The notes: generated from the letters alone by a model not told the origin. Shown: positions 1 through 28,867, numbered from the stretch's first letter. The stretch is DNA of 64,000 bases from an uncultured Gammaproteobacteria bacterium (GCA_964600575.1 CAZRJH010000003.1:17640-81639), one strand, 5' to 3'. Made by a program: numbers and translations.

Positions 1-175
1 TCAACGATGCGAACCGTACCGGCTCCTTGCCCACTTTGCGAGTAACACTCGGACGCTCCCCGCGCCGCAAGGAAACCATGCCCCGCCGCCGCATTTTGGG
101 CGACAACCAACGCCGCGTCATTGGCGACCCCGGGGACGAGTAATCCCTCTTCGTGAGACTCACACTTAACGTGTG
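1..175 (+). ncRNA. GC-rich (~60-65% GC) non-coding segment in an AT-rich genome with no ORF of 60 aa or more; possibly the 3' portion of a structured RNA gene truncated by the window edge (identity unresolved)
   Basis: Strong compositional contrast with downstream DNA, no long ORF on either strand, and a hairpin plus T-run immediately downstream; no confident match to RNase P, tmRNA, SRP or rRNA conserved blocks by eye. Confidence 0.3.
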
Positions 176-277: not shown

Positions 278-1696
278 ATGGAAAGAGGAAAAAATTTCGC
301 AGTTGTAAACGGTCTTGCCATAGGCGAAGAAAGCAAAGGCAACACTGTTCAGGCACTAGTTAGAGAACTAAGTGCTCATACCGTTTGGCGCTCGGGCGGT
401 TGGCAAGGCGGCCATCATATTATTCACGACGACGGTCGCGAAATGGCCCTAAGCCATTTTGGAGCAGGAATTTTCGAAGGAGCAGACACATACCTCAAAC
501 ATATGGTTATTAGCCCGGTAGAACTTTTTGAAGAATCAGAGATACTCCGCGAACTGGGTATCGATAAACCCTTAAATCACATATATATAGACGAAACTTG
601 CTTGGTTACAACTCCGTTTCATAGATCGATAAGTAGGTTTAGGGAAATACTTAGGGGAGATAACAAGAAAGGAACAATAGGAACGGGTGTGGGGGAAGCC
701 GTAAGGGATTCGAGTGATCCCGAGCTAGCCATAAGAGCATGTGAGTTGGGTGACAAAATTTTGATATTAAGAAAAGCAGAAAATATAAGATTATCTAAGT
801 TAAAGATTGCTCAGGATTTACTTGAAAATTACAAAGGAACTCCTCCCCCGGAAGTTTACGAAGAGATGAGCTTTTTGAAAGATAGTTCTCTCACAGAACT
901 AGTTGCCGAAAGCTTTGAAATGTTTTCCGGCATTGCCAGAATTGTGGGGAGCGACCATCTTCAGAAACTGCTAAAAAGAGGAGGATCGGTTGTTAACGAA
1001 GTTTCTCATGGCACACTTCACCACCCCAGGCACGGTTTTTTGCCACATATCACTCAAATAGATCCCACTTCGGCCGATGTTCTAAAAACAATTAAGGCGG
1101 CAAATTACGATGGAAATATTATTAGGCTTGGCGTTGTCAGGTCTTACATAACACGCCACGGAGCGGGTCCTTTGGTCAGTTTTGAGCCTTCACTCGCAAA
1201 CATTTTTGATGAAAAACATAACACTGGAGCCGAGGAGTGGCTTGGTCCTTTTAGAGCTGGTTATTTTGATATTGTTGCCCTAAAGTATGCCGTAGAAATA
1301 GGCGGAGGAAAATCGGCCTATAACGGGCTTTATCTAAGTTTTATGGATTTAGTTGAAAAAAGTAGCGAATGGGGGGTTGTTGAAGCATACGAGTATAAGG
1401 GTAAGCCTACCAATCTCAGCGAATTTTTCGATATATCAAACGGGCAAATTAGAGGCATAAAATTTGAACATGATAACGGCGAAACACATACCAAGCGACA
1501 AATGGAGCTCACAAAACTTCTAAACGAATGTAGGCCAATACTAACCAAGCTCAAAGCAGGCGGCGGTCAAAGTTTAGACAAGGTTTTTTTGAACTATGTA
1601 ACACAAAAGCTGGGCATACCAGTTGTGGGTATAGCTCGCGGCCCTAAAGTTACTCAAAAAGAATTTTTCCCTGCCTGGAAAAATGTAGTTAAGTAA
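278..1696 (+). CDS. Adenylosuccinate synthetase (PurA) family protein, highly divergent
   Basis: N-terminal P-loop-like AVVNGLAIGEESKGN (compare VVLGTQWGDEGKGK); SGGWQGGHH (compare YQGGHNAGH); KGTIGTGVGEAV (compare GTTGRGIGPAY); RHGAGP (compare RVGAGPF). The Arg-rich IMP-binding loop TTGRRRRTGW is replaced by AEEWLGPFRAGYFD. 472 aa versus about 430 typical. Confidence 0.6.
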   Translation: MERGKNFAVVNGLAIGEESKGNTVQALVRELSAHTVWRSGGWQGGHHIIHDDGREMALSHFGAGIFEGADTYLKHMVISPVELFEESEILRELGIDKPLNHIYIDETCLVTTPFHRSISRFREILRGDNKKGTIGTGVGEAVRDSSDPELAIRACELGDKILILRKAENIRLSKLKIAQDLLENYKGTPPPEVYEEMSFLKDSSLTELVAESFEMFSGIARIVGSDHLQKLLKRGGSVVNEVSHGTLHHPRHGFLPHITQIDPTSADVLKTIKAANYDGNIIRLGVVRSYITRHGAGPLVSFEPSLANIFDEKHNTGAEEWLGPFRAGYFDIVALKYAVEIGGGKSAYNGLYLSFMDLVEKSSEWGVVEAYEYKGKPTNLSEFFDISNGQIRGIKFEHDNGETHTKRQMELTKLLNECRPILTKLKAGGGQSLDKVFLNYVTQKLGIPVVGIARGPKVTQKEFFPAWKNVVK

Positions 1697-3491
1697 TTTC
1701 TTCCGATAGATCGGGCAAAAACACTTTATTCAAGAACAAGACGGAAGCCAAATGTCTATAGCCGTTATCCCAAAAAGCACTTCTGTAATCAATGATTTTA
1801 CCTAAAGGAGGCTCGGTGTTTTTGTCTTCCGGATAAAGTCTTCTGTAGCCTTTATGCATAAGTCTATATTGCAAGGTGTCTATCTCCAGCTGTCTCAAAA
1901 GACTTCTTCTGATATTTTCTTTGCGGCCGCCAAACTTAGAAAGATCCAGATATAAATTAAAGACATCGGTTCTAACTTTGTTTATTTCTTCGTTTTCTCC
2001 CACCCATATCCCACCAAAGATAAAGTGTATCTGCGGTAGTCCGACAACCTCGATAGCTGCGTTATCGGGAATTTCTTTCAGCCCGTATTTACCACTCTCA
2101 TCCGAAGTCCAGTATTCCAGGACCTTGTCTACTTTTCCAAGTTCGGGTAAACGTTCTTTTATTCTTGCCAGCATTTTTTCTCTTTGTGTAAAATCAGCGT
2201 TAGGTCTAAAAAATATAGCCATATCAAAGTCTCCCTTTTGGTTTGCGTAGCCTTTTATCTTGGATCCAAAAACCAAAACAAACGGGAAAATTATATTTTT
2301 TAACTCGTTGTCGGCATTAATTTTTTCGGCAATTTGTACCAAAAACGCACCTTCGTCTTCAACAAAACCTTGAATATTAACTGGCTCGGGTTGTCTAACA
2401 TCGACAGCGTTTCCCCTGAAATAGCCAAGCCGTATAAAGTGGAACATGGCTCTTTCCGCTTCCGCCTTTTCAGTGAACGAACCTGATTTTGTCAGTTTTG
2501 TTAACACGCCACGGGCTTTATCTGCTAGTGTTTTGGCTTGTTTACCGTCGCTTTTAGCTAATGTTTCAACCGATTTGATAACTGCTCTAGTTCCTGGTGT
2601 GCCAAAGCTAAAAATTTCCTTTAAGGGGGCTTTTTTGTTAATCAAAAAAACAGACAACAGACTCGAAACTTCCTCATAAACCGCGTCCAGCTCCATGTCT
2701 TTTTTCCAGTCGGCTCTTTTCCTGGAAATCCGCTTGCTTTCGGCCAATCCGGGTTTGTATTTATTTTCAACATAACTTATTTGGGAATGCAGATAATCTT
2801 TAATTTCATCTATGGTTGACATCTCTTTTGCTTGTGATGGCTTTTCCCCTAGAAGCTTGCCTAAGCCGGCGTTTTGAGCAACTTTGGATATCTTTTGCCA
2901 GGAAACGTTGTCAAAAAGACCCAGTGCATTTGCAACCAACGAGCCTTCGGTCATTGATTCGATAAGCTCTTTGTCACCGGAGTTAAATTCCATTATTTGA
3001 ACAATATCCGTTTGAGAGATGATGCCTCGATCAAGCAGGGGAAAAATCAAGTGCGCGGCTTTTCTTGTTCTCGGGGGATTACCCATGCCGGGCTCTAGTA
3101 CATCGCCGTCATCAAAATCGCCGCGGGCATTGCTGTCAAAAAGCAGCCTAATAAAACCCTCTCTTATTGCCTCCGTTGTTTTTTGAGATGTCGGGGAAGG
3201 GATTTCTTTAATATCGGGTAAAACTTCAAATGGCAGGTACAAGATGATTCTGGCATTATTCTCATCGCGAGAAAGAAAACTTCCCAGCCTTTCATAAAAA
3301 ATATCTTTATTTTTACCTTTGACAGCCTCGTCCAGGAGCTCGGACAGTTCTCGCCTTTGAGATGCCTCATGCCATATTCTGCTGGGGAGTGGGGAAGAAT
3401 CATTCCCGGCCGAGGCGAGATCTTTCGCGAGGCTTCCCAAAACTGCTAAGCCTTTGCCGACACCTGCTTCTTTATTTTTCTTTCTTTCCAT
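1689..3491 (-). CDS. Large Pol-beta-superfamily nucleotidyltransferase-domain protein; ~385 aa unknown N-terminal region, NTase core, helical C-terminus
   Basis: hG[GS]-x11-DxD motif VFGSKIKGYANQKGDFDMAIFF resembles OAS/cGAS/SMODS-type minimal NTases. ATG at 3491 sits 7 nt after a consensus TATAAT. The ORF stays open upstream to TTG at 3527, so 1689..3527 is the alternative. Confidence 0.5.
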   Translation of the reverse strand: MERKKNKEAGVGKGLAVLGSLAKDLASAGNDSSPLPSRIWHEASQRRELSELLDEAVKGKNKDIFYERLGSFLSRDENNARIILYLPFEVLPDIKEIPSPTSQKTTEAIREGFIRLLFDSNARGDFDDGDVLEPGMGNPPRTRKAAHLIFPLLDRGIISQTDIVQIMEFNSGDKELIESMTEGSLVANALGLFDNVSWQKISKVAQNAGLGKLLGEKPSQAKEMSTIDEIKDYLHSQISYVENKYKPGLAESKRISRKRADWKKDMELDAVYEEVSSLLSVFLINKKAPLKEIFSFGTPGTRAVIKSVETLAKSDGKQAKTLADKARGVLTKLTKSGSFTEKAEAERAMFHFIRLGYFRGNAVDVRQPEPVNIQGFVEDEGAFLVQIAEKINADNELKNIIFPFVLVFGSKIKGYANQKGDFDMAIFFRPNADFTQREKMLARIKERLPELGKVDKVLEYWTSDESGKYGLKEIPDNAAIEVVGLPQIHFIFGGIWVGENEEINKVRTDVFNLYLDLSKFGGRKENIRRSLLRQLEIDTLQYRLMHKGYRRLYPEDKNTEPPLGKIIDYRSAFWDNGYRHLASVLFLNKVFLPDLSEEIT

Positions 3492-3498
3492 GGGCACG

Positions 3499-3527
3499 AT
3501 TATAGTCTTTTCGAGCTCAAAAGTCAA
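3499..3527 (-). promoter_or_regulatory. Consensus sigma70-type promoter TTGACT-17-TATAAT driving a leaderless transcript of the NTase gene
   Basis: Minus strand reads TTGACT tttgagctcgaaaagac TATAAT cgtgccc ATG; -35 at 3522-3527, -10 at 3499-3504. Confidence 0.55.
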
Positions 3528-3561
3528 TACTACAGGATATTACATTAATATTTTTGACCAC

Positions 3562-3595
3562 AAAAAAAGCGGGCACCTTTTTAATGGGTACCCGC
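3562..3595 (-). terminator. Intrinsic terminator between the small upstream gene and the NTase gene (minus strand)
   Basis: Imperfect 9-bp stem gcgggcacc/ggtacccgc with 9-nt loop; A7 on plus strand means a T-run follows the hairpin on the minus strand. Confidence 0.45.
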
Positions 3596-3624
3596 TAGGC
3601 CAGAAATATAAAACCTAAATGTTG

Positions 3625-4065
3625 TTAGGAAAACGAAAGTTTCATCTTTCTCACGACCTTAATCTTGCTGGAAGGAATGTCGTTTCCAATGAAACCGTCT
3701 TCATAAAACATGATGAGCTCGCCGCCGCCGTCGTATTTGCCGTTTTTTAGACGCCTGGCTTCCACATGCCAAGACTCACCTGCGGGGTAAGCCTGTTCAA
3801 CGACAAATTCTGCATTCTCTCGTGACGGATCAGTCCCGCTTATAACTTTTTCGTAAAAGTCCAATTTGGGAAAGTTTCCGTGCTCGCGATAATAAGCGAG
3901 TTTTTCCTCGTCCGTGTAATGAATAAGGAATGTGGTTCCCGATTCTCTGCCTACATGAACTATTTTATTTTCCACGTCTTCGATTCTGTGGTGCCTGCCG
4001 TGAACAAACCATTCCGACATGAGCACAAAACCTTGGCGCAGAGTGGCTTTCGAGGGCTGTCTCAT
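3625..4065 (-). CDS. Hypothetical protein, ~146 aa, no TM segment, no recognised domain
   Basis: ORF on minus strand; ATG at 4065 is preceded by AAAGAGG 6 nt upstream. The longer ORF to 4125 starts at TTG inside the promoter region. Confidence 0.45.
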   Translation of the reverse strand: MRQPSKATLRQGFVLMSEWFVHGRHHRIEDVENKIVHVGRESGTTFLIHYTDEEKLAYYREHGNFPKLDFYEKVISGTDPSRENAEFVVEQAYPAGESWHVEARRLKNGKYDGGGELIMFYEDGFIGNDIPSSKIKVVRKMKLSFS

Positions 4066-4135
4066 ATAACCTCTTTTTAATTTAGGGTGCACAATTATAT
4101 TAAACCCAAAAGTAGAATTAGTCAAGATTATAGGT

Positions 4136-4141
4136 TATAAT
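4136..4141 (+). promoter_or_regulatory. -10 box TATAAT placed 6 nt before the ATG of the 4148 gene (leaderless arrangement)
   Basis: ggtTATAATatcgatATG; weak -35 candidate TAGAAT 17 nt upstream. Confidence 0.4.
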
Positions 4142-4147
4142 ATCGAT

Positions 4148-4975
4148 ATGACCGAAAAATTTTACGAGCAGGACAAAGACTATGCCCACGCCTGTGCAAA
4201 CTTGCTTCACGACCTTCACAGGGAAGGGGTTTTAAGTGTCAACGATTTACAAAAGTTCGGTAACGACCAAATAGAGGAGTTGGTCTTAAGAATTCACAAA
4301 AACGGATTCCCCGCGAGGACCTCCAAAATGAAACTCGGCAATCACGATGAAAAAATTCAAACTATTTTTGCCTCCGATATTGTACCGGCATCGGAAACAC
4401 CCGATAAAAAAGAAATAACTGCTTTTGTATCCGACTTTTTGCAGTATATACGCTCAATAGGCTACGACGAGGTTACGGGCGCTTTGGTCTATGGCAGTCT
4501 TTTGGACAAACGGAAAAAGCCCAGATCCACAAGCGATTTAGATATAACACTCTTGGTGAGTAGCTCCTCGGGAGCCGTGCATTTGGAAAATGCATGGCTC
4601 AGAAACCCCAACTCGGAAGTGGGTTCAGGTGATATACCTACCGAGTCAAGATACTATGACCTAACTGAAGATGCATACAAATTTGCAAAATTAAAACACC
4701 CTAAATTTGCAGACAGAGAGTTTTCTATAAATAACGTATTAAACAAAGAACTTTTCAATTATCGCATGGACCCTTTTGATAAAAAAGAAGCTCCCTGGTG
4801 GCTATATTCAACGGGAATATTTGCCGTGGGCGGTTTTCCTGGAGTTTCGGAGGCAGCACTTAATAATACTCTGCAAAAAGCACTAAAGTCTAAGTGGTTG
4901 GCAGAACTTAAACAAAGGACCATTAACGATATCAAAAAAGATCTGGATCATAATTTTGGAAAAATGGGGAAATAA
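4148..4975 (+). CDS. Nucleotidyltransferase-domain protein of the kanamycin/lincosamide NTase (ANT/MNT-like) type
   Basis: GALVYGSLLDKRKKPRSTSDLDITLLV matches the hG[GS]-x12-DhD Pol-beta fold signature (compare KNTase YGSLARGE..SDIDLLV); 275 aa. Confidence 0.55.
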   Translation: MTEKFYEQDKDYAHACANLLHDLHREGVLSVNDLQKFGNDQIEELVLRIHKNGFPARTSKMKLGNHDEKIQTIFASDIVPASETPDKKEITAFVSDFLQYIRSIGYDEVTGALVYGSLLDKRKKPRSTSDLDITLLVSSSSGAVHLENAWLRNPNSEVGSGDIPTESRYYDLTEDAYKFAKLKHPKFADREFSINNVLNKELFNYRMDPFDKKEAPWWLYSTGIFAVGGFPGVSEAALNNTLQKALKSKWLAELKQRTINDIKKDLDHNFGKMGK

Positions 4976-4996
4976 ACTGTTTAGGCAGGGTCATGA

Positions 4997-5776
4997 TTAA
5001 TTTTTTGGCCAATAGGTTTTGGCCGGGTTTTTGAGGTTTGCGTCGCTGTGTTCAGTTGTGTGAATAACAACAGGAATCAGAGTTGGACTCACCCCCGCGT
5101 AAGTATCTGTGTCCAGATAAGAATTGCAGGACATAAAATAAACTCCACCATAGCGCGCAATGTTTCCTGTTTTTACATTTGAAACTTGAGAAATTAAAGT
5201 ATTTGCTAAAATTTCTTCGTCGTTTGCACCATTTATAGCTAGATTAAATACTCCGTCTTCACTAAAAACTCTTCCGTGAGCATTGAAAACGGCTATTCTT
5301 TTGCCGTCTTTTGCTAAGTTATGAAGCACAGCAAGCGCCTCGAGTGAGTCTTTGCAGTTTGTTTCTATTGCCGTTCTCCTTATCCTTGCAAGAGATTTTG
5401 TTAAGCAAAAAGGAGCGTTGATTGTAAGGATTTGTCTGTTAATGGTTTTTTTAGAATAAATATCGTTCAGAGTAGTTGCTTTTTCATCCGCTTTCTTTAT
5501 ATCTTCGGTTAAGTCGTCAACTGTTGTAAAAAGGTCATATTTGTAGGCAGTGCCAAAAAAATAAGAAACAACATCAGGAATGTAGACAAAATTTCTGTGC
5601 AATGGTGTTTTGTTGGTCTCGGAAGGTAATTGTATAAACAAGTTTTTACTCATTTCTTGCTTTTTAGCCATCGAAAAGTCGGCCTCGGCTGAATAACTTT
5701 TGTTCTGCCACGGGCCTGCGCCTAGGCACGAACTAAGTGCAAATCTTTGTTGAGAATAAATTGTAGCTTCAAACAT
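4997..5776 (-). CDS. Hypothetical protein (259 aa)
   Basis: Long ORF; ATG at 5776 sits 6 nt downstream of a consensus TATAAT; no recognised motif. Confidence 0.5.
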   Translation of the reverse strand: MFEATIYSQQRFALSSCLGAGPWQNKSYSAEADFSMAKKQEMSKNLFIQLPSETNKTPLHRNFVYIPDVVSYFFGTAYKYDLFTTVDDLTEDIKKADEKATTLNDIYSKKTINRQILTINAPFCLTKSLARIRRTAIETNCKDSLEALAVLHNLAKDGKRIAVFNAHGRVFSEDGVFNLAINGANDEEILANTLISQVSNVKTGNIARYGGVYFMSCNSYLDTDTYAGVSPTLIPVVIHTTEHSDANLKNPAKTYWPKN

Positions 5777-5782
5777 CCTATA

Positions 5783-5810
5783 ATTATATACTTTCTGAAC
5801 TCAAAGTCAA
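5783..5810 (-). promoter_or_regulatory. Consensus promoter TTGACT-16-TATAAT for the 4997..5776 gene (leaderless)
   Basis: Minus strand reads cccTATAATaTTGACTttgagttcagaaagtaTATAATtataggATG; the spacer closely resembles that of the 3499-3527 promoter. Confidence 0.5.
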
Positions 5811-5939
5811 TATTATAGGGTTAAATTTATAATCTGATAATCTTGGTCAACAAACTCAATTAGGTTTGAACGAATACAAGACAATTTAAATTGAAATATT
5901 TTTTAGCATACTCAAAACTTATCTGCTAAAATAATCGTT

Positions 5940-8630
5940 GTGTTGAATATATTTTCTAAACTTTTGGATCTAAATCAGAGAGAAGTCGACCGCATCAAAA
6001 AAATAGTAGAAAAAGTTAACGCTTTAGAACCCAAGACAAAAAAACTAAAAGATTCCGATTTTTCCAAAAAAACTCAAGAATTTAAAAAGAGATTGGAAAA
6101 AGGTGAAACTTTGGAGTCGATACTACCCGAAGCCTATGCACTTGTAAGGGAAGCGTCCTACAGAATTTTAGGCAAGAGGCATTACGATGTACAGCTTGTT
6201 GCCGCGGTTGCCTTGTTCGAAGGCCGTGTTGCCGAACAAAAAACAGGAGAAGGTAAAACTTTGTCTGCTGTTCCTGCACTTTATTTACGCGCTTTAACTG
6301 GGCAAGGAGTTCATTTGGTTACCGTTAACGATTATTTGGCCCGTCGTGACGCGGGTTGGAATGCTCCGATTTTTCATCTTTTAGGTCTAACCACGGGTGC
6401 AATAATCCAGGAAACAAAATCTTTTGTCTACGACCCAAAGTTTTCCGACTCCAGCCACGGTGACGAACGCTTGGCACATCTCAAACCGACAGAAAGAAAA
6501 GAAGCATATAAATCCGACATTTTATACGGTACCAATAACGAATTCGGATTTGATTATTTGCGCGACAACATGGTTAACGCCTTATCCGAGATGGTTCAGC
6601 GCGGACATTATTTTGCAATAGTAGACGAGGTGGACTCCGTACTTATCGACGAGGCAAGAACCCCTCTAATTATTTCTGCCCCCGATACCGAGCCCACAAA
6701 AAAATATTACGAGTTTGCATCTTTAGTCGAAAAACTTAATCCAGATACAGATTTTAAAATCGACGAAAAAGCAAAAAGCGCAACTTTAACCGAAACGGGA
6801 ATAACAAGAGTAGAAAAACTTTTAGGAATAGACAATCTTTACGAAAAAGACTTCGACAGTATTCATCATATAGAAAACGCATTACGCGCAAAAACTCTTT
6901 ATTTAAGAGATCGTGACTATGTAGTTAAAGATAATCAAATAACTATAGTAGACGAATTTACGGGGCGTCTTATGGTGGGCAGACGCTGGAGCGACGGACT
7001 CCACCAAGCCGTGGAAGCAAAAGAAAATGTAACTATTCAGCAAGAAAGTAGGACGCTGGCAACTATTTCTTTCCAGAATTATTTTAGGATGTACGAACAT
7101 TTGTCGGGTATGACGGGTACTGCCTCAACCGAGTCGGAAGAATTTAGAAAGATTTATAAGCTGGAAGTTATCGTTATACCCACCCACAGACAAATGGTAA
7201 GAATTGACAAAAGCGACATGATCTTTAAAACCTTGCGCGGAAAATACGGAGCGATTGTAGAAGAAGTAGCAGAAAGAAGCGAAGCTGGGCAACCGGTTCT
7301 TATTGGTACCACCTCCATCGAGAAAAACGAAATTATTTCCGAATTTCTCAAACGCAAGAAAGTTCCACACAATGTTTTAAACGCCAAAAATCACGAAAAA
7401 GAGGCCGAGATTATTGCCGAAGCCGGTAAACCGGGGGCTGTAACAGTTGCTACCAATATGGCAGGCCGCGGTGTTGATATCGTTTTGGGCGGTGCTATGC
7501 CCGACAGAAAAAACGGGGAAACAAACGAAAAATACGAATCCAGTCGTGAATATAAAGATTGGCAAAAAATTCATAATCAGGTACTCGATGCAGGCGGGCT
7601 TTATGTAATCGGAACCGAACGCCACGAAGCACGTCGCGTTGATAACCAGTTAAGAGGTCGTTCTGGTAGGCAGGGCGACAGCGGAACTTCCAGATTTTAT
7701 CTTTCTTTGGAAGACGATCTTATGAGAATTTTCGGCGGCGAGCAAATATCGGGAATTATGGACAGACTTAATTTGCCCGAGGACCAACCGATAGAAAATT
7801 CCTTAATAAGTAGGGCAATCGAACAAGCCCAGGTTAAAGTAGAAGGTTTCCACTTTGACATCAGAAAACGACTAGTTGAGTTTGACGATGTGGCCAATCA
7901 ACAAAGAGATATTGTTTATAAACTACGAAGAAGAATCCTTGAATCAACCGATGTTAAAGAAGAGGTTTTAGAAAAACTCCATCATCAGCTGGAAAAAACA
8001 CTTTTGTTGGCAACTGGGGTAGAAGACGAAAAAGTAGATGACGATCAACTGGCGGTAGGTCTTGCCGAAATGGTACCTTTTGACGACGACTCCCTTAAGC
8101 GTATTAAAGGCGAGATCCAAAAACAGGAAAATAAACTGGAGTTTTTGAAGAGTGTTCTCAAAGATATTTACACAGCCCGCGAAAAAGATTTGGGAGAAAA
8201 GGTTATGCGGGAGGTAGAAAAGTATGCATATTTAGGGGCAATAGATCATCTTTGGATGGATCATATAGACCACATAGACGATCTTCGGGAAGGTGTAACT
8301 CTTAGGGCATACGGCCAAAGGGACCCCTTGGTAGAGTTTAAAAACGAAGCATATAGGCTTTTCGAAACCTTAATAGATAAAATAGACGAAGAGCTTTCTC
8401 ATAGGATATTTAGAATAGGCGTTGCTATGCCCCAAAGCGAAATCCCCTTAAATCTTGCAAGGGAAAACTTGGACAAAACCGACCTAACGGGGCTTTCGGG
8501 TGGTGCCGACGAAACCGCAAAATCAGGAGCCAAAGCCTTTGATAAATCCAAACTTTCCAGAAACGACCCCTGTTGGTGCGGCAGCGGCAAAAAGTGGAAG
8601 AAGTGCCACTACCCCAAGCTTCCCGCTTAA
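5940..8630 (+). CDS. secA: Preprotein translocase ATPase subunit SecA
   Basis: DEAD-motor Walker A (AEQKTGEGKTL) and Walker B (VDEVDSVLIDEARTPLIIS), then GRGVDIVLGG and LRGRSGRQGDSG; C-terminal zinc finger CWCGSGKKWKKCH; 896 aa. Confidence 0.95.
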   Translation: MLNIFSKLLDLNQREVDRIKKIVEKVNALEPKTKKLKDSDFSKKTQEFKKRLEKGETLESILPEAYALVREASYRILGKRHYDVQLVAAVALFEGRVAEQKTGEGKTLSAVPALYLRALTGQGVHLVTVNDYLARRDAGWNAPIFHLLGLTTGAIIQETKSFVYDPKFSDSSHGDERLAHLKPTERKEAYKSDILYGTNNEFGFDYLRDNMVNALSEMVQRGHYFAIVDEVDSVLIDEARTPLIISAPDTEPTKKYYEFASLVEKLNPDTDFKIDEKAKSATLTETGITRVEKLLGIDNLYEKDFDSIHHIENALRAKTLYLRDRDYVVKDNQITIVDEFTGRLMVGRRWSDGLHQAVEAKENVTIQQESRTLATISFQNYFRMYEHLSGMTGTASTESEEFRKIYKLEVIVIPTHRQMVRIDKSDMIFKTLRGKYGAIVEEVAERSEAGQPVLIGTTSIEKNEIISEFLKRKKVPHNVLNAKNHEKEAEIIAEAGKPGAVTVATNMAGRGVDIVLGGAMPDRKNGETNEKYESSREYKDWQKIHNQVLDAGGLYVIGTERHEARRVDNQLRGRSGRQGDSGTSRFYLSLEDDLMRIFGGEQISGIMDRLNLPEDQPIENSLISRAIEQAQVKVEGFHFDIRKRLVEFDDVANQQRDIVYKLRRRILESTDVKEEVLEKLHHQLEKTLLLATGVEDEKVDDDQLAVGLAEMVPFDDDSLKRIKGEIQKQENKLEFLKSVLKDIYTAREKDLGEKVMREVEKYAYLGAIDHLWMDHIDHIDDLREGVTLRAYGQRDPLVEFKNEAYRLFETLIDKIDEELSHRIFRIGVAMPQSEIPLNLARENLDKTDLTGLSGGADETAKSGAKAFDKSKLSRNDPCWCGSGKKWKKCHYPKLPA

Positions 8631-8657
8631 GCAAAAATACCGACAGCACGACCTTTT

Positions 8658-8666
8658 TGATATAAT
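8658..8666 (+). promoter_or_regulatory. Extended -10 promoter TGaTATAAT, 6 nt before ATG 8673 (leaderless)
   Basis: tttTGaTATAATctccatATG. Confidence 0.45.
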
Positions 8667-8672
8667 CTCCAT

Positions 8673-9446
8673 ATGGAATCTACAAACAAAAGAAGTAGCA
8701 GGCAGGAGTTGGCTAGTACAGGCCCAGCCGTGTACCAAGTCTTTAAAGAGCTAATACTTCATCCCAGAAGAAATGATAGCCATGGAAACTTGTACTACAA
8801 ACCGGGGGAAAAGTGGACAAGACCGGGCTGGGTCGACTTCGAAAAAGATGTCTCCAAAGATCATGGGCGTTTGAGTGCGTTCAATAACGAGCAGGAGAAA
8901 TATATAGATCAGTGCCGCATATTCTTGAGAGATTCTATAACAGATAGCGAAACATCACTTGCGAAGAGATTTGCCAAAAAGTGGGAAGCTTCCAACAAAA
9001 CCAAAGCCGAGTTCGAGGACTTACTCTGTGATTCCTTTTTGGATTGTTTTAACGAAGCAGTCGATAAAGAACCACATCTACTACCTGCATTCTATGGCTT
9101 TTTAGTCTCCTCTTTTAACGGTGTCGAAGGTCTCGAACTTGCACTCACAATGAGTATTTATTCGGATAGCATTGCCAATACAAGGTTAAATGAAAATATG
9201 AATAAATTTGTCGATATGCATGAGGATAAAAATGAACTGGGTGCCCCTAAAACATACGAAGTTCAATGTGCCGCACCTCTTCTTGCTATGAAAATAATTG
9301 ATCAAGGCAGGGAATGCTTAAAAAATGCAGGACTCACACAGGGCGATAAATCTATTAAAAATTCTAAGTCTAAATTGGCAGGACTTGCCACTGACCTGAG
9401 AACCGACTTAATGGTAAGAATGATTAAAGCCGGATTCCAAATCTGA
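8673..9446 (+). CDS. Hypothetical protein, member of an in-window paralogous pair (family A, copy 1)
   Basis: Shares colinear blocks with the 16676..17470 product: YQVFKELILHPRR / YQIYKDLIENPGR; LPAFYGFLVSSFNGVEGLELAL / TPAFYAFLISSGAGSEGLMIAL; YEVQCAAPLLAMKII / YEVQCAAPALTLKII. Confidence 0.6.
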   Translation: MESTNKRSSRQELASTGPAVYQVFKELILHPRRNDSHGNLYYKPGEKWTRPGWVDFEKDVSKDHGRLSAFNNEQEKYIDQCRIFLRDSITDSETSLAKRFAKKWEASNKTKAEFEDLLCDSFLDCFNEAVDKEPHLLPAFYGFLVSSFNGVEGLELALTMSIYSDSIANTRLNENMNKFVDMHEDKNELGAPKTYEVQCAAPLLAMKIIDQGRECLKNAGLTQGDKSIKNSKSKLAGLATDLRTDLMVRMIKAGFQI

Positions 9447-9486
9447 TTTGTTATTGCTTCACATTCTGTCTAGAATTCAGTAATCG

Positions 9487-10077
9487 ATGATTTTCAAATA
9501 TATTTTTTTCGATTGGCACAAAACATTGTCAAATGATATTTTTTGGCCCGATGACGATTTGATCTCCTTCCAGGTATTTAGAGCAAATTCTGATCTTGCG
9601 GAAAAGTGGATGAGAGGCGCATTGTCATCCGAACAGGTGGCTCTTTTTGTTAGTAATAAAACCGGTATCTCGGAAAAAGTCATCTTGGAAAAACTGGAAA
9701 AGGGCTGTAGGTCAATGAGTTTTTCCATTCCAAAAATGCGGGAGTATATAAAAAAACTAAAAGAGAAAAAAATAAGCTTAGGCATTGCAACCGACAATAT
9801 GGATACTTTTTCCAGGTATACGGTTCCGGCCTTAAACCTTAAAGAAATGTTTGATATATTTTTAATTTCTTCTGATTTGGGCTTTCTCAAAAATGATCTT
9901 GTCAAAGGTCGTCCCGTCTTTTTCGAAAAGTTTCTCAAAGATAATAGTTTAAATTATTCGGATATATTATTAATAGACGACTCACAGAAGGTTGCGAATA
10001 CCTACAAACCTCTTGGAATGAAAATAATAAATGTTACAAAAGACGGAGACCTGGAAACTTTTCTAAAATCGGTATGA
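9487..10077 (+). CDS. HAD-superfamily-like hydrolase with degenerate motif I
   Basis: FFDWHKTL (HAD motif I with His in place of the second Asp), GIATDN, LLIDDSQ (motif IV); 196 aa. Confidence 0.4.
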   Translation: MIFKYIFFDWHKTLSNDIFWPDDDLISFQVFRANSDLAEKWMRGALSSEQVALFVSNKTGISEKVILEKLEKGCRSMSFSIPKMREYIKKLKEKKISLGIATDNMDTFSRYTVPALNLKEMFDIFLISSDLGFLKNDLVKGRPVFFEKFLKDNSLNYSDILLIDDSQKVANTYKPLGMKIINVTKDGDLETFLKSV

Positions 10078-11546
10078 AATTTAGATTTAATAAAGAAAGT
10101 ATTTTTATTTTAGCGGTAGTTGTGTTTGCCTTTTTATTACGGGTTTATGGCATAGATAAAGACCTGCTTTATCACAGAGACCAGGGTTTGGTTGCCATGG
10201 ATATTTATAAAATTTGGCACGACAAAAAAATATCTCTGATAGGTGCCCCCACGGATGTTGACGGCTTGTATCATTCACCAGTTTATTATTGGATTTTGAC
10301 ACCACTTTATTGGCTGGGTAGGGGAGATGTTGTTTATCCCGCAATATTTCAAATTTTGCTGGAAATGCTATCATTGCCGCTTTTGTATTTTGGAGTAAAA
10401 AAACTGTTTGATAAAAAAACTGCTATTTTTACTTTAATTTTATATTCGGTTTCATACGGACTAATTTCTTATAGCAGGTGGTTTATAACGGTTCCTTTTA
10501 TACTCCCGCTGGCCAATATTCTTATATATTTTCTGTCAAAAGGGAAAAATATTTTTCGAGAATCGCTTTTGGTGGGAATGATATCTCAAACAAACGCTGC
10601 CGCAGGTGTCTTCTATATACCTTTTATCTTGTTTAGGTACAGAAAAGAAATAAATTTAGTCAATCTAATCAAATCGGCTACTGCATTCATAATACCCGCA
10701 ATTCCACTTGTTGTTTTTCAGTTCCGTCACGATTTTGTTATTTTCAAAACGGTCGCCGCCTATTCGTCGGGATCTGCTGGACTAGGGTTTAGCCTTTCGG
10801 TTTACGCAAAAAATCTGGTAATCTTTTTGCAGGAAATTAATCACATCATTTATTACCCGTTTGCGGCGCTTACTACATTCTTATTCATATACGGCCTATC
10901 TAAAATAAAACAGCATAAAGAACTAATATTTTCTTACATTTTTATACCGTTTGTTTTTCTGGGACTTTATCAAAGGGGGGCTATTAGTTTTTTCTTTATG
11001 GCGGCACTGCCCATGCTTTTATCGGTTGTTGTATTTGGAATAACGAAGTTTCCGTTATTATTGAGAAATTTATTTTTGATAACTGTTATTGTGTCAAATC
11101 TGTTACTTTTAAAAAATGTTTACGAGCCAAATAATGCACTCATTCCCATAGGTGACAGAAATGTGATAACCATTTCTGACAGAAAGAAAATTATTGATTG
11201 GATGTATAAAAAAGCCGAAGGAAAAGATTTCTCTTTGTGGATTTATACAATTCCTTATTTTCAGGACTACCCATGGGACTATCTATTTACAACTTACGCT
11301 CTACCTAAGTACGGATATCTTCCCGAAAAAACTGGATCGTTTTCCAAAAACGACCTAAACAAATCCGTTTACTTTTTTAATGTCTATGAAGTTGATCATG
11401 ACAACTCGTCGAGGCAGGATTCCTGGTTTTTTGATATTCAAAACAATTTCGGTAAAACAAAGGAATATGTCGGGTATCATGACGTTCACATAGAACTTAG
11501 ATCTTGGAGCGCGACTGTCGACTCTTCGAAAAAGAAAACCTTTTAA
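10074..11546 (+). CDS. Polytopic membrane protein, GT39 (PMT/ArnT-like, GT-C fold) glycosyltransferase-like; paralog 1 of 3
   Basis: Many TM segments; N-terminal loop DQGLVAMD...LIGAPTDVDGLYHSPVYYWILTPLYWLG is colinear with the 49178 and 51668 products. Confidence 0.6.
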   Translation: MKFRFNKESIFILAVVVFAFLLRVYGIDKDLLYHRDQGLVAMDIYKIWHDKKISLIGAPTDVDGLYHSPVYYWILTPLYWLGRGDVVYPAIFQILLEMLSLPLLYFGVKKLFDKKTAIFTLILYSVSYGLISYSRWFITVPFILPLANILIYFLSKGKNIFRESLLVGMISQTNAAAGVFYIPFILFRYRKEINLVNLIKSATAFIIPAIPLVVFQFRHDFVIFKTVAAYSSGSAGLGFSLSVYAKNLVIFLQEINHIIYYPFAALTTFLFIYGLSKIKQHKELIFSYIFIPFVFLGLYQRGAISFFFMAALPMLLSVVVFGITKFPLLLRNLFLITVIVSNLLLLKNVYEPNNALIPIGDRNVITISDRKKIIDWMYKKAEGKDFSLWIYTIPYFQDYPWDYLFTTYALPKYGYLPEKTGSFSKNDLNKSVYFFNVYEVDHDNSSRQDSWFFDIQNNFGKTKEYVGYHDVHIELRSWSATVDSSKKKTF

Positions 11547-15557: not shown

Positions 15558-16672
15558 AGAAAATATTATTCGGCATAACGGGAATCGGTTTTGGACACAC
15601 TTATAGACAGATGCCTTTGGTAGAACACTTTTTAGAAAAAGGCGATAAGGTAGCGATTTTTGCTTACGACGAAAGTCTTGTTATCTTTCAAAAGCAATTT
15701 GCAGACGTAAAAAATATTAAAGTTGTCGAGGTGGCAGTTCCCTTTTTTGCAGGCGGGCCTACGGGTCTGGATTTTCGGACGGCCTCAACAATGGCTTACA
15801 ACACAAAAGACTTTTATGTCACAAATTTCAAAGCGTGGGCCGAAGCCAAGGAATTTGTAGGAAAACCGGACTTGGTTATTAGCGATTACGACCCGGTTAG
15901 CGCCCAGTATGCATATTCACAAAATTCTCCGCTTGTTACATACGACCAGCAAAGCAAATATTTGGTTGGAGATTTTCCCGAGAACATTTCCGGTACGGGT
16001 TTTGCCGATGAGGTTGAGAGACTTCATATGTTTTTCCCTAAGGTTTCGGCAAGAATTGCCTCGTCATTTTTTAATTTTGAGAAAATTAATAATGGGGATG
16101 AGGTATCAATATTTCCTCCGACGATAAACAAAACTTTGTTAAATTCGACAATGGGTGCAAATAAAACCAAAGAAAATAAGGTACTGGTACATATATCGAA
16201 AGCAAAATCTTTCAATCAACCTTTATCAGAAATCTTTGATGTTTTTAACTCTGCCGCCGATTTTAAATTTTACGTTTTTACCGAACCTTCCCAAGTCAAA
16301 GAATATTCCAATAAATTCAAAAATATAAATTTTTTTGAACACGATACCGATACTTTTCATAAACTTCTACCTGAATGTTCTGCTGTTGTTTCCAGTGCGG
16401 GACATTCGCTTATTTCCGAAGCGTTGTACCTAAACACACCTCTAATGCTTGTTCCAATATCAACATATGAGCAATACATGAATGCCAAAAAGGTGGAAGA
16501 GGGCGGTTTCGGGGTTTCGGTCGAAAAAATAACCTCTGAAAACCTTAAATCTTTTTTAAGAAATTTAGGTAAGTATGTATTAAATATTCAAAATGACACA
16601 AAAATAATTCTTAAAGGCGTAGGACAGGAGAAAATAATTGAATTTTTGAACAGAAAGTTTTTAAATCGATAA
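15554..16672 (+). CDS. GT-B glycosyltransferase (GT28/MurG-like or GT1-like)
   Basis: N-terminal GITGIGFGHTYRQMP (MurG-like G-loop); C-terminal SSAGHSLISEALYLNTPLMLVP; ATGA overlap with the upstream gene. Confidence 0.7.
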   Translation: MKKILFGITGIGFGHTYRQMPLVEHFLEKGDKVAIFAYDESLVIFQKQFADVKNIKVVEVAVPFFAGGPTGLDFRTASTMAYNTKDFYVTNFKAWAEAKEFVGKPDLVISDYDPVSAQYAYSQNSPLVTYDQQSKYLVGDFPENISGTGFADEVERLHMFFPKVSARIASSFFNFEKINNGDEVSIFPPTINKTLLNSTMGANKTKENKVLVHISKAKSFNQPLSEIFDVFNSAADFKFYVFTEPSQVKEYSNKFKNINFFEHDTDTFHKLLPECSAVVSSAGHSLISEALYLNTPLMLVPISTYEQYMNAKKVEEGGFGVSVEKITSENLKSFLRNLGKYVLNIQNDTKIILKGVGQEKIIEFLNRKFLNR

Positions 16673-16675
16673 AAT

Positions 16676-17470
16676 ATGGCTGATAGATTAAACGGAGAAG
16701 TTCCAAAAAGGTTAAAAATAGAAGAGATAACTTCTCATCGAGAAGTCTATCAAATCTATAAGGATTTAATAGAAAATCCGGGCCGAGGCAGGCAGGAGAC
16801 GGATAAACCCACCTACTACAAACCACCGCAATCATATCGTTACGAAAACGGGAGAGAAGATTTCCCAATAGACCATGCATTTAGGCGGAAGACTTCATTT
16901 ACAGAAAAGCAGGAGATATATAACGATCTCTTGCGTGTAACCCTCCGCAACGAAATTGCAGATCCCGACAGCGGTCTTGTCGGCGGATTCAAAAAACGGT
17001 GGGATAAAGACCCCAACCCAGCAAAATTTGAAAATCATTTGGTAGAAGCTTACATGGAAAGTCTCAAAAAAGCTTTTGATAAAAACCCTAACTTAACTCC
17101 CGCGTTTTATGCATTTCTGATTTCCTCGGGTGCCGGGTCCGAAGGTTTGATGATTGCACTAAGAGAGGGTGTTTTTCCAAGATTAACAGGCAGAAAAGAT
17201 CGGGATCAATATATGGCCTTTGTTGGTATGCATTTAACAGAAAAGGAAAAACCTCAAAAATTGGAATACGAAGTGCAGTGTGCCGCTCCCGCACTTACTC
17301 TGAAAATAATAAAGGAAGTTGAGACATGTCTACAGCATACAGGCAGAACCATGCGGGATTTGGAAATGGGAACTTTCGACGGACCATGGATGAACATATC
17401 TTCCGGTGTCAAAAAAATTTTAAAAGAAAAAATGAAAGATTTGGGTTATACAAACCTCAAAGAATCTTAA
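16676..17470 (+). CDS. Hypothetical protein, paralog of the 8673..9446 product (family A, copy 2)
   Basis: See the shared blocks listed for 8673..9446; 264 aa; 3-bp gap after the upstream GT gene suggests co-transcription. Confidence 0.6.
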   Translation: MADRLNGEVPKRLKIEEITSHREVYQIYKDLIENPGRGRQETDKPTYYKPPQSYRYENGREDFPIDHAFRRKTSFTEKQEIYNDLLRVTLRNEIADPDSGLVGGFKKRWDKDPNPAKFENHLVEAYMESLKKAFDKNPNLTPAFYAFLISSGAGSEGLMIALREGVFPRLTGRKDRDQYMAFVGMHLTEKEKPQKLEYEVQCAAPALTLKIIKEVETCLQHTGRTMRDLEMGTFDGPWMNISSGVKKILKEKMKDLGYTNLKES

Positions 17471-17494
17471 ATAGTTAGACTATAAGTTATTTTA

Positions 17495-18169: not shown

Positions 18170-18233
18170 CATCCTCCTCACACGAAAGTGCGAGATTCAC
18201 ACAATGAGGATGACGCACCAATTGTTCAATTTG

Positions 18234-18262
18234 TACTCGCATTTATAAGCGAGTTTTTTTAA
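18234..18262 (+). terminator. Intrinsic terminator (actcgc-atttataa-gcgagt plus T7)
   Basis: 6-bp stem, 8-nt loop, T7 at 18255-18261; preceded by a second imperfect hairpin at 18172-18216. Confidence 0.6.
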
Positions 18263-18267
18263 ACAAT

Positions 18268-18276
18268 TGGTATAAT
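18268..18276 (+). promoter_or_regulatory. Extended -10 promoter TGgTATAAT, 6 nt before ATG 18283 (leaderless)
   Basis: attGGTATAATgtttgtATG. Confidence 0.45.
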
Positions 18277-18282
18277 GTTTGT

Positions 18283-19746: not shown

Positions 19747-19754
19747 ACTAAGCA

Positions 19755-20327: not shown

Positions 20328-20339
20328 TTTTCCCCACAA

Positions 20340-20378
20340 AAAAGCCCCCGTTGGAGAAATTCCTAGGGGGCCTGGCGG
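20340..20378 (-). terminator. Intrinsic terminator for the minus-strand nucleosidase gene; hairpin overlaps its stop codon
   Basis: gccccc-N16-gggggc stem; the minus-strand reading is followed by TTTTTTGTGG. Confidence 0.5.
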
Positions 20379-21187: not shown

Positions 21188-21209
21188 TACTATGGGGTTA
21201 CAAAATAAA

Positions 21210-26536: not shown

Positions 26537-26575
26537 AGCCTTCCAATTTACGATTTAGATAAGTAGCCTATAATC

Positions 26576-28847: not shown

Positions 28848-28867
28848 AAATTCATCAAGGAGAAAAT

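Follow-up and report, generated by a model that had tools for sequence, protein, structure and literature searches.

A Patescibacteria-wide family of large Pol-beta-superfamily nucleotidyltransferases is genetically linked to a PurA-like gene

The locus analyzed here raises the question of what a large protein with a Pol-beta-type nucleotidyltransferase (NTase) core belongs with and what it may do. It lies near the left end of the window, meaning the whole stretch of 64,000 nucleotides that was analyzed. The first-pass annotation had placed this gene A in one module with genes B, C, and D, likened it to OAS, cGAS, or SMODS-type enzymes, and offered three functions: second-messenger defense, a toxin–antitoxin-like pair, or nucleotidylylation-based modification. 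All four open reading frames exist as delimited there (Table 1). The genetic partner of gene A, however, is the convergent, 3'-overlapping PurA-like gene (PurAL) and not B, C, or D.

Table 1. Features at the left end of the window, with coordinates counted from its first nucleotide
Feature	Position	Strand	Description
'f11'-family gene, 3' end (last 46 codons and stop)	1-143	+	SAM/HhH-domain protein; frame-3 translation NDANRTGSLPTLRVTLGRSPRR...
PurA-like gene (PurAL), 472 aa	278-1696	+	Pfam Adenylsucc_synt, E 2.5e-41
Gene A, 600 aa	1689-3491	-	Helical solenoid, Pol-beta NTase core, and helical tail
Promoter of A	3499-3536	-	CCTGTAGT-A-TTGACT-17 nt-TATAAT, then 7 nt, ATG
Intrinsic terminator after B	3561-3596	-	10-bp GC-rich stem, 9-nt loop, U7
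Gene B, 146 aa	3625-4065	-	Orphan; own promoter 4097-4125, Shine-Dalgarno AAAGAGG, terminator
Gene C, 275 aa	4148-4975	+	Putative minimal NTase; YGS-x12-DLD
Gene D, 259 aa (224 aa from internal Met)	4997-5776	-	Orphan; between C and secA
Promoter of D	5783-5819	-	CCTATAAT-A-TTGACT-16 nt-TATAAT, then 6 nt, ATG

The gene A protein is built from a solenoid (residues ~1–370), a minimal Pol-beta NTase core (~395–500), and a conserved helical tail (500–600). The core carries the NTase motif FGS-x10-DFD that had been noticed before, formed by G409, S410, D421, F422, and D423. Among 196 family members, G409, S410, and D421 are conserved to 100% and D423 to 99%. In the structure model, which is confident, strands and a helix are predicted at 401–428, and this fits hG[GS]-x9-13-[DE]h[DE] on a Pol-beta core; a domain-only model is poor over the tail. 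Profile matches stay below their thresholds, with Pfam Polbeta reaching 25.1 bits (E 2e-5) versus a cutoff of 26.9 and NCBIfam MntA 25.3 bits (E 1e-5) versus a cutoff of 60, the latter covering only residues 404–450 of 600. The protein belongs to the Pol-beta superfamily of NTases; its catalytic motif is intact, its architecture is unusual, and it is presumably catalytically active because the GS...DxD motif is invariant. Structure comparison identifies the N-terminal part as a solenoid, the matches being generic helical repeats with high rmsd, and finds the core similar to solved NTase folds. By structural scores this core is of the MNT/ANT type, with MNT-type protein AMPylases scoring above aminoglycoside nucleotidyltransferases (ANTs).

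Many invariant Arg, Lys, and His residues are found in the solenoid and the tail, and the tail contains R543-x2-H546, the spacing of which differs from the HEPN Rx4-6H. Such residues, together with an HhH/SAM protein in the conserved cluster, would suit an RNA 3'-end nucleotidyltransferase acting in tailing or repair, with an RNA-binding solenoid and a PurA-like partner linked to the supply of nucleotides from scavenged host RNA. Pol-beta NTases do include poly(A) and CCA enzymes, and weak matches to Pfam MTPAP-like (E 0.037) and, in Foldseek, to a poly(A) polymerase (E ~0.3) were obtained. These matches are insignificant, however, and no PAP/CCA-type central or RNA-binding domain is present in the protein. 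As the MNT and ANT types also score better and a fusion with the PurA fold (described below) would be left unexplained, this RNA-directed activity is considered very unlikely.

With CD-NTases, cGAS, and OAS (SMODS, Mab-21, OAS1_C), gene A has the superfamily fold and the GS...DxD catalytic logic in common. No match at E ≤ 1 to SMODS, Mab-21, OAS1_C, or CBASS cyclase profiles was found in Pfam or PADLOC, the closest structural neighbors belong to other families, and the structural scores to CD-NTase, cGAS, and OAS proteins are lower than those to the MNT/ANT type; the proposed likeness to OAS, cGAS, or SMODS enzymes is thus not borne out. A CBASS-type operon was likewise rejected, since B, C, and D are unconserved and without effector domains, and the conserved neighbors are PurA-like, SAM-like, vWA-like, and kinase-like genes.

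MntA/MNT proteins are stand-alone proteins of 100–150 aa encoded beside a HEPN toxin, for which they serve as type VII HEPN-MNT antitoxins; PDB entries 7ae2_B, 5yep_A, and 8xeh_E and HI0073 (1no5) are examples. Unlike these, the gene A protein is 600 aa long, includes a 370-aa solenoid as well as a conserved helical tail, has no HEPN neighbor, and shares its vertical inheritance with a PurA-like partner. Its assignment as a type VII antitoxin was rejected on the low MntA score over a short segment. In line with what had been stated before, neither an effector nor a HEPN match was found in A–D by Pfam, PADLOC, or NCBIfam, and B has no family or PDB match. ANT(9), ANT(3'')(9), and ANT(4') (PDB 6sxj, 7uy4, 6nlt) are resistance enzymes of ~250 aa that modify small molecules. 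In contrast to gene A, the aminoglycoside nucleotidyltransferases have neither a solenoid nor a PurA-like partner, and no significant sequence similarity connects the two. A housekeeping NTase was rejected as well, as no profile match to GlnE, GlnD_UR_UTase (none to either in Pfam), PolyA_pol/CCA, or PolX was obtained; GlnE differs in domain order and partner, and gene A has a single NTase domain.

The gene A family comprises ~514 clusters (50% identity) at E ≤ 1e-10 in an exhaustive HMM search, compared with only 11 relatives in a word-indexed search. Altogether, 79 species-level loci were recovered. Their titles mostly name Patescibacteria, namely, Woese-, Davies-, Shapiro-, and Roizmanbacteria, Parcubacteria groups, Saccharibacteria, and Peribacteria; a few family records run under other names, and the loci are all of the Patescibacteria type. 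Pairwise distances correlate with r = 0.73 between A and PurAL and 0.78 between PurAL and the vWA-like protein, as a measure of co-inheritance. No match to gene A was found in phage records or phage protein families (PHROG), and the literature searched contains no description of the family or the module. The family represents uncharacterized, Patescibacteria (CPR)-wide, large (~600 aa) Pol-beta nucleotidyltransferases, and gene A behaves as a vertically inherited, lineage-wide gene. The ~514 clusters are fewer than expected of a strictly universal CPR gene, which counts against the explanation preferred below.

The PurA-like gene adjoins gene A in all 74 species-level loci that are assessable, i.e., that have enough flanking sequence. 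The two 3' ends overlap or lie ≤75 nt apart in 20 loci (8 nt are shared in the window); in 44 others, one gene's worth of sequence (~1.07–1.87 kb) separates them, normally the SAM/HhH gene F4 or f11. Three proteins (P0016, P0028, and P0064) contain the Adenylsucc_synt and A domains fused in a single chain. In relatives, the co-oriented genes usually follow the order kinase-like, vWA-like, (SAM/HhH-domain gene), and PurA-like, with the PurA-like gene being distal. Of the 79 loci, 63 contain a vWA-like gene, an assignment based on a DxTGS motif and two marginal Pfam hits, and 42 contain the kinase-like gene. For the kinase-like family, a match to the catalytic-loop region of CK2 was obtained (E 5e-8), and the HRD Asp is not conserved. 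A SAM/HhH-like N terminus is found in 14 of 36 F4 members.

The window shows only the PurA-like gene, gene A, and an f11 fragment of this cluster, and the rest of f11 and the expected vWA-like and kinase-like genes lie beyond its 5' edge. The fragment shares 66% identity with the f11 C terminus of locus L013 (E 3e-19) and 77% with that of L081 over 30 aa; the order f11–PurAL is also seen in L013, L030, and other loci. The convergent orientation puts gene A on a different transcript from its partners, an observation that counts against the preferred explanation.

Judging from its alignment, the PurA-like protein is a divergent paralogue with the adenylosuccinate-synthetase fold, in which the GTP-site residues are kept and the IMP- and aspartate-binding residues are replaced. 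It matches Pfam Adenylsucc_synt with 142 bits versus a cutoff of 27 and E. coli PurA with E ~1e-20. Homology to PurA, and to phage PurZ, is clear, and the P-loop, the catalytic His, and the guanine-specifying Asp are common to both (P-loop Lys, H41, and D333 in the alignment to E. coli PurA). In contrast, the IMP-phosphate and aspartate residues are swapped for others that are conserved within the family. T129, R143, Q224, T301, R303, and K331 of E. coli PurA are all replaced; the first five, which we take to be IMP- and L-aspartate-binding residues, align with I, E, H, E/W, and P/F, respectively (1ade-type chains). Across 71 sequences, the PurA-like family shows a set of conserved residues of its own at the sites where PurA binds IMP and Asp; the P-loop and the equivalents of H41 and D333 are retained in the family. 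Unlike purA and purZ, the gene is embedded among vWA-like and kinase-like genes.

Genes B and D are orphans outside this conserved system. B has no match in Pfam, PADLOC, NCBIfam, PHROG, or PDB and no relatives in 91 related loci, JGI metagenome contigs, or IMG/VR. D matches only itself in a database of 5.8 billion proteins, has no family match in Pfam, PADLOC, NCBIfam, or PHROG and no homologue in the 91 related loci, and its location between C and secA is peculiar to this genome. Elsewhere, C is always found directly upstream of secA, including locus L088, which contains neither A nor PurAL. Gene C is lineage-specific and linked to secA, not to A: it occurs in ~5 lineages only, with homologues limited to four clusters among the 5.8 billion proteins and one 32%-identical copy in L001. 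Its earlier reading as an NTase stands as far as the motif is concerned, which is invariant in all five family sequences, whereas profile support is weak (Pfam Polbeta E 0.015, 15.9 bits versus 26.9). C plausibly encodes another small NTase, unrelated to the first; it has no PDB match and no profile similarity to gene A. It has a −10 box (TATAAT) 6 nt before its ATG and its own terminator at 5004–5037. In other relatives, a NUDIX gene, a resolvase, or some other gene occupies the corresponding position.

A and D had been described as having nearly identical promoters, with translation starting 6–7 nt after the −10 box. Both TTGACT-(16/17)-TATAAT promoters are present, are the only two strict matches in the 64 kb, and share 30 of 38 positions, but the similarity is not specific to them, as an unrelated promoter at 26567 is just as similar to A and D (29/38 and 30/38). 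For the extended motif CCTATAAT-N-TTGACT, six occurrences in the window compare with 0.7 expected. The short distance to the start codon is real for A and D but is a genome-wide trait: a −10 box lies 4–10 nt before the start codon in 14 of 52 ORFs and a Shine-Dalgarno-like motif is found in only 4 of 52, so that leaderless starts are the genome norm. The mRNA of gene A is itself predicted to be leaderless because its ATG lies 7 nt downstream of the promoter, and no Shine-Dalgarno motif precedes it. The style that these promoters share, a strong-promoter, leaderless design, is ordinary for the genome and does not serve as evidence of co-regulation. The terminator said to separate B from A is confirmed, with an RNA folding energy of −24.8 kcal/mol (z = −3.3), a stability that none of 200 shuffled sequences reached. 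Public gene callers start gene A at a TTG within the −35 box, giving 612 aa, and gene D at the internal Met.

A co-regulated two-NTase module A-B-C-D, acting in second-messenger defense or as a toxin–antitoxin-like pair, is extremely unlikely in view of these neighborhoods. The hG[GS]...DxD motifs of both A and C, weak PADLOC PDC-S09 matches (A, E 0.012; C, E 0.0013), the promoter element CCTATAAT-N-TTGACT common to A, B, and D, and the resemblance of the A core to MntA antitoxins would speak for it. Against them stand the orphan state of B and D, the association of C with secA, the unrelated genes at that position in relatives, and promoter and leaderless features that are found genome-wide. 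No CD-NTase, SMODS, or OAS match and no HEPN, effector, or sensor was found, and A is vertically inherited across the superphylum without a phage match, unlike patchy defense islands. The module is largely refuted by the missing synteny, and its proposed bounds omit the PurA-like gene to which A is linked. Linkage among A–D is absent in relatives, yet A matches no known housekeeping NTase family either. High confidence is placed in family membership, the PurA-like partnership, and the absence of an A-B-C-D module taken together.

MNT/ANT-type enzymes use an NTP to attach an NMP, in most cases AMP, to a hydroxyl group. In the preferred explanation, a vertically inherited CPR module would be built around a PurA-fold enzyme, and gene A would supply its nucleotidyl-transferring subunit. 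The N-terminal solenoid of A would provide a docking surface for the PurA-like protein, or for the complex of the latter with the vWA-like, kinase-like, and SAM-like proteins, and a protein of that complex would be nucleotidylylated. This would control or complete the action of a GTP-dependent PurA-fold ligase with a substrate pocket different from that of genuine adenylosuccinate synthetase. Docking and nucleotidylylation are proposed because of the presumed activity, the MNT/ANT-type core, and the putative docking surface. The explanation as a whole, with B, C, and D being separate, is given about an even chance; a protein acceptor within the complex is a more tentative suggestion. Among the three functions offered before, nucleotidylylation-based modification is kept as the best guess for the chemistry of A. 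The vertically inherited module probably serves nucleotide handling in nucleotide-auxotrophic bacteria and not phage defense.

Alternatively, the PurA-like enzyme and A may catalyze consecutive steps on a small nucleotide-like molecule. In this scheme, the PurA-fold ligase would use GTP to activate an oxo group, that of a purine or another, for the addition of an amine. Adenylylation or other nucleotidylylation of the product by A, at a hydroxyl or a phosphate, would follow, like that of aminoglycosides by ANTs, and would yield a CPR-specific nucleotide derivative or salvage intermediate. Enzyme–enzyme fusions are a classic sign of successive steps, and the remodeled PurA-like pocket would fit. 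NUDIX/NrtR-like (ADP-ribose-type, in 23 of 79 loci), NAD synthase, NAPRTase, and PRK-family (phosphoribulokinase/uridine kinase) kinase genes lie near gene A in relatives, and some Parcubacteria loci have an added pyruvate-kinase/HpcH-like barrel (Pfam PK, E 1.4e-8). However, a 370-aa solenoid and non-enzymatic vWA-like, pseudokinase-like, and SAM-like partners are unusual for a simple pathway, MNT-type protein AMPylases outscore ANTs, and no transporter or further tailoring enzyme is consistently linked to the cluster. Such a pathway is rather unlikely. The Rosetta-stone fusion of PurA-like protein and A fits consecutive small-molecule steps at least as well as an enzyme and its regulator.

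By analogy with NTP-dependent systems containing vWA and SAM domains, the cluster might also be a CPR-wide conflict or surveillance system in which detection of an invader or host signal would fall to the vWA-like, pseudokinase-like, and SAM-like proteins, and production or consumption of a nucleotide signal to A and the PurA-like enzyme. The vWA-like, kinase-like, SAM-like, and NTase proteins, along with an AAA+ ATPase present in some Parcubacteria loci, resemble in their general theme the components catalogued in one survey (PMC7159879), and duplication of the PurAL-vWA-kinase triad in four loci (L007, L012, L016, and L084) suggests diversification. A stable position, a conserved gene order, mostly one copy per locus, and distances in keeping with taxonomy argue against it, as does the lack of a linked recognizable effector (nuclease, pore former, or protease), and the conflict system is regarded as improbable. 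The survey makes no mention of PurA; CPR organisms were excluded from its multicellularity-association test.

A broader reading is that of a lineage-defining machine of Patescibacteria, in which a GTP-dependent PurA-fold ligase with remodeled pocket would work with a solenoid MNT-type NTase, the two being fused in some cases. With vWA-like, pseudokinase-like, and SAM-like proteins as their scaffold, these enzymes would create or attach a new purine-nucleotide-derived modification on protein, RNA, or metabolite. This reading is speculative and on balance doubtful; if true, the machine would have a central part in the processing of scavenged nucleotides by nucleotide-auxotrophic episymbionts. 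Some genomes contain a second, equally atypical PurA-like paralogue.

The protein encoded by A is an intact Pol-beta nucleotidyltransferase (NTase) of the MNT/ANT structural type, with the motif FGS-x10-DFD. Pfam Polbeta (E 2e-5) and NCBIfam MntA (E 1e-5) both match below threshold, and only over residues 404–450. The AlphaFold model calculated from the family alignment is confident (pLDDT 83, pTM 0.84) and places the NTase core at residues 395–500. The N-terminal part is provisionally labeled a solenoid, a fold-level impression taken from the model. Helices at residues 500–590 are confident in the full-length model only—residues 372–600 modeled alone fall below pLDDT 50 over the last 67 residues—and hence probably pack against this solenoid. 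A Foldseek comparison of full-length A with the PDB gave no match below E 0.09. Within the MNT/ANT branch of the Pol-beta superfamily, this domain arrangement is new. D423 is conserved in 99% of 196 family members, and G409, S410, and D421 in all of them. Conserved charged residues occur both in the solenoid (R46, R81, R123, D130, E133, K144, H147, and R259) and in the tail (E536, R543, H546, D568, and R579), the latter reading Rx2H as opposed to the Rx4-6H of HEPN domains. Conservation of the motif and the charged residues throughout the family makes it very probable, as judged from sequence, that A is catalytically active and binds its substrate through a large conserved surface.

A word-indexed search returned only 11 relatives of A; searching 1.84 billion cluster representatives exhaustively with an HMM gave 548, of which 514 have E≤1e-10. 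Nearly all are full length (580–670 aa). By scanning one genome per GTDB species with two peptide patterns, at least 79 loci were obtained. Their titles mostly name Patescibacteria (CPR)—Woese-, Davies-, Shapiro-, and Roizmanbacteria, many Parcubacteria groups, Saccharibacteria, and Peribacteria—and the few TPA-assembled records that carry other names have the same gene neighborhood. No match to A was found in phage genomes. Some family members are larger. Two proteins of 913 aa (P0068 and P0081) carry an extra N-terminal domain of ~280 aa without a match in Pfam or the PDB; a phosphoribosyltransferase assignment suggested by its LLVFDTCQHTG motif was dropped for lack of support in either database. 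Several others (P0066, P0067, and P0072; ~780–830 aa) contain a large extra segment and match in two parts with an offset of 160–200 residues.

Clustering of all ORFs from the at least 79 loci revealed a recurrent order of kinase-like (~280 aa), vWA-like (~377 aa), and PurA-like (~463 aa) genes and, in most loci, a gene of family F4 or f11 (330–440 aa). These genes are co-stranded, and A converges on them from the opposite strand. Among the loci listed, the PurA-like gene, a divergent paralogue of adenylosuccinate synthetase, adjoins A in 74 of 74 with at least 1.5 kb of downstream sequence, a count that leaves out five loci on truncated contigs. The ends of the two genes overlap or lie at most 75 nt apart in 20 of the loci listed; in another 44, a gap of ~1.07–1.87 kb has the length of one gene, normally F4 or f11. 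In the window, f11 is followed by the PurA-like gene, which is convergent with A and overlaps it by 8 nt at the stop codons; the vWA-like and kinase-like genes would lie beyond the 5′ edge. In two loci (L011 and L054), A and the PurA-like gene are co-directional and abutting, and three proteins (P0016, P0028, and P0064) are single polypeptides in which an Adenylsucc_synt domain is followed by A in full length. The genetic partner of A is a divergent PurA-fold enzyme, up to gene fusion, and in the CPR lineages sampled the pair is passed on vertically. Across 47 loci, the A, PurA-like, and vWA-like proteins show correlated pairwise distances (r = 0.64–0.78), which fits inheritance of the three as a unit.

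The cluster varies at its margins. Four loci (L007 at 5962-10103, L012 at 16221-20613, L016, and L084) contain the PurA-like/vWA/kinase triad duplicated as a unit, with a PurA-like paralogue of 442–448 aa, a Pkinase-type protein, and a longer vWA-like protein (~490–515 aa) whose C-terminal extension gives a faint DUF2135 match. A Parcubacteria variant (L015, L020, L026, L043, L061, L066, L071, L076, and L086) lacks the kinase-like gene and instead encodes four proteins: a pyruvate-kinase/HpcH-like TIM barrel (Pfam PK, E 1.4e-8), an additional vWA-like protein, an AAA+ ATPase of 650 aa (PF00004, E 1.5e-21), and an unknown protein of 240 aa. A NUDIX gene stands at one cluster end in 23 of the 79 genome loci listed (within L009–L087) and also in L001, L002, L008, and L091; it often encodes an NrtR-type winged-helix domain and once a NUDT9-type N-terminal domain. 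These neighbors may indicate that ADP-ribose/NAD metabolism controls the cluster or is connected with it.

By Pfam, the PurA-like protein is a clear homologue of adenylosuccinate synthetase. In an alignment with Escherichia coli PurA, the P-loop lysine, the GAGP loop, and the equivalents of the catalytic His41 and the guanine-specifying Asp333 are all retained. Replaced are T129, R143, Q224, T301, and R303, through which the E. coli enzyme holds L-aspartate and the phosphate of IMP. In their stand, 71 family members share a conserved set of their own (Q43, E140, H244, H294, [WY]321-Q-G-x-x-R326, and D357), which suggests a working enzyme whose substrate pocket differs. The second paralogue of the duplicated triads is equally atypical and has its own vWA-like and kinase-like neighbors. 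The kinase-like family matches the CK2 catalytic-loop region (E 5e-8); since the HRD aspartate is unconserved and the DFG aspartate variable, many members may be pseudokinases. The vWA-like family shows an invariant D-x-T-x-S followed by conserved acidic positions, a MIDAS-site pattern. It has no PDB match and just two marginal VWA_4 matches, none significant, so that the vWA label, resting on the DxTGS...D pattern, is provisional. Of 36 F4 members, 14 begin with a SAM/HhH-like domain, and the N-terminal region of f11 appears similar by eye. The pair of A and the PurA-like protein is embedded with three proteins that are apparently non-catalytic or of scaffold type. The f11 C terminus ends in a conserved Arg-rich tail, N-x-A-x-RTGSLPTLRV-x-L-x-R-x-PRR, with 66–77% identity between distant lineages; it could be a docking or modification site.

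Enzymes with a core of this type transfer an NMP to a hydroxyl, and the solenoid together with the scaffold-type neighbors suggests a protein complex. From these two features, we favor a mechanism in which A nucleotidylylates a protein of the cluster complex and herewith controls or completes the PurA-like reaction; GlnE acting on glutamine synthetase would be a loose parallel. The main rival is that the PurA-like enzyme and A act successively on a small nucleotide-like metabolite, which the fusions and the NUDIX and NAD-salvage neighbors fit equally well. A could also be an RNA-tailing enzyme, or the cluster a CPR-wide conflict system, both being less likely. Neither the family nor the cluster is described in the literature searched, including a survey that covers NTP-dependent vWA conflict systems and a recent study of how Patescibacteria scavenge nucleotides; coverage herein was incomplete, and this is absence of evidence only.

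Patescibacteria make up a large share of bacterial diversity and lack de novo nucleotide synthesis; to our knowledge, few of their conserved genes without known function have been studied. New here are the domain architecture of this Pol-beta NTase and its strongly conserved partnership. The gene set was recovered repeatedly in the major CPR lineages sampled, its two enzymes are linked by Rosetta-stone fusion, and the finding bears on CPR biology and nucleotide enzymology. The PurA-like enzyme is routinely annotated as adenylosuccinate synthetase (PurA), and much of what is annotated as purA in CPR genomes may be this paralogue. If so, reconstructions crediting these organisms with IMP-to-AMP conversion may be wrong. 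Homologues of A are present in Saccharibacteria, which include cultivable, genetically tractable strains, making the question of A and its PurA-like partner directly testable.

The first-pass annotation had read A and its neighbors B, C, and D as one module of two NTases and small partners. All four ORFs are present as described; their coordinates and those of the other features are collected in the table. Searches of A–D against PADLOC, PHROGs, and NCBIfam gave nothing beyond the sub-threshold NTase-core matches, and B and D have no match in these or in Pfam. A database search with D returns D itself only, and B has no relative among the 91 fetched loci, JGI metagenome contigs, or IMG/VR. C carries the motif YGS-x12-DLD with a marginal Pfam Polbeta match (E 0.015), and profile–profile comparison with the NTase domain of A shows no relationship apart from the GS/DxD strand. 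Its relatives, four at ~50% identity and one at 32%, are in every case encoded directly upstream of secA, including L088, where neither A nor a PurA-like gene is nearby; D is an insertion that separates C from secA in this genome. Other relatives of A carry unrelated genes where B–D would lie, among them a NUDIX gene or a serine recombinase accompanied by conjugation genes. With B and D lacking relatives, C tracking secA, and the position being variable, A-B-C-D is not a conserved unit. A defense or toxin–antitoxin module, as had been proposed for the four genes, is essentially excluded by the missing conserved synteny and by A falling outside both the CD-NTase/cGAS/OAS and the HEPN-MNT systems.

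Coordinates of genes, promoters, and related features (window positions unless a locus is named)
Feature	Position	Strand	Description
A	1689-3491	-	ORF, 600 aa counted from ATG
B	3625-4065	-	ORF, 146 aa
C	4148-4975	+	ORF, 275 aa
D	4997-5776	-	ORF, 259 aa
PurA-like gene	278-1696	+	flanks A-D on one side
secA	5940-8630	+	flanks A-D on other side
f11 C-terminal 46 residues	3-140	+	similarity to f11 proteins of loci L013 and L081
f11 tails compared	window 3-140; L013 13301-14296; L081 12172-13341
Intrinsic terminator, strong	3561-3596	-	RNA hairpin, 3′ of B
Terminator-like hairpin	5004-5027		within D 3′ end
A promoter	5′ of A	-	TTGACT-17-TATAAT, then 7 nt, then ATG
D promoter	5′ of D	-	TTGACT-16-TATAAT, then 6 nt, then ATG
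C -10 box	6 nt ahead of C ATG	+	TATAAT
CCTATAAT-N-TTGACT sites	3522-3536, 4120-4134, 5805-5819, 21182-21196, 26567-26581, 40932-40946

The promoter sequences at A and D are exactly as first given, and strict consensus promoters directly abutting a start codon occur at these two genes only in the 64 kb. Their likeness had been taken as a sign of co-regulation, a reading that does not survive comparison with the rest of the window. The A and D promoters are identical at 30 of 38 positions, and the promoter at the unrelated locus 26567 is equally similar to both (29/38 to A, with 13/17 in the spacer, and 30/38 to D). The element CCTATAAT-N-TTGACT, immediately adjoining the -35 box, has six copies in the window versus 0.73 expected; the sites include B, a PNP_UDP_1 (phosphorylase-superfamily) gene (20363-21109), and locus 26567. 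In addition, a TANAAT box ends 4–10 nt before the start in 14 of 52 ORFs. A Shine-Dalgarno-like motif precedes only 4 of the 52, and, given so few of these and so many start-proximal -10 boxes, leaderless translation seems to be widely used by this organism. Consensus promoters with leaderless starts are, at the level of sequence, a genome-wide style and no evidence for an A/D regulon. A dedicated operator in the promoter spacers (TTTGAGNTCNRAAAG) was likewise rejected, as the 26567 promoter is as similar to both and the exact motif is found once; the motif TTATAGGNTATAAT shows no enrichment. The CCTATAAT-N-TTGACT element also stands ahead of the A homologues in L008 and L090; an UP-like or divergent-promoter element characteristic of the lineage is one possible identity. 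Public gene calls start A at a TTG within its own -35 hexamer (612 aa; 3491-3527) and D at an internal Met (224 aa; 5671-5776); if the consensus promoters are used, both starts are probably mis-set.

Farther along the window, a stretch of ~4.8 kb (26567-31500) has ~50% GC compared with ~40% elsewhere. Pfam gives no match for the long ORFs it contains (709, 337, and 228 aa). Size and composition suggest an rRNA operon, but no Rfam match was obtained even at E≤1e-3; Rfam searches of the whole window and of 26.4–32.4 kb gave no RNA families, and no tRNA was found in the 64 kb. The stretch is preceded by a strong promoter-like site, CCTATAATCTTGACA-17-TATGAT.
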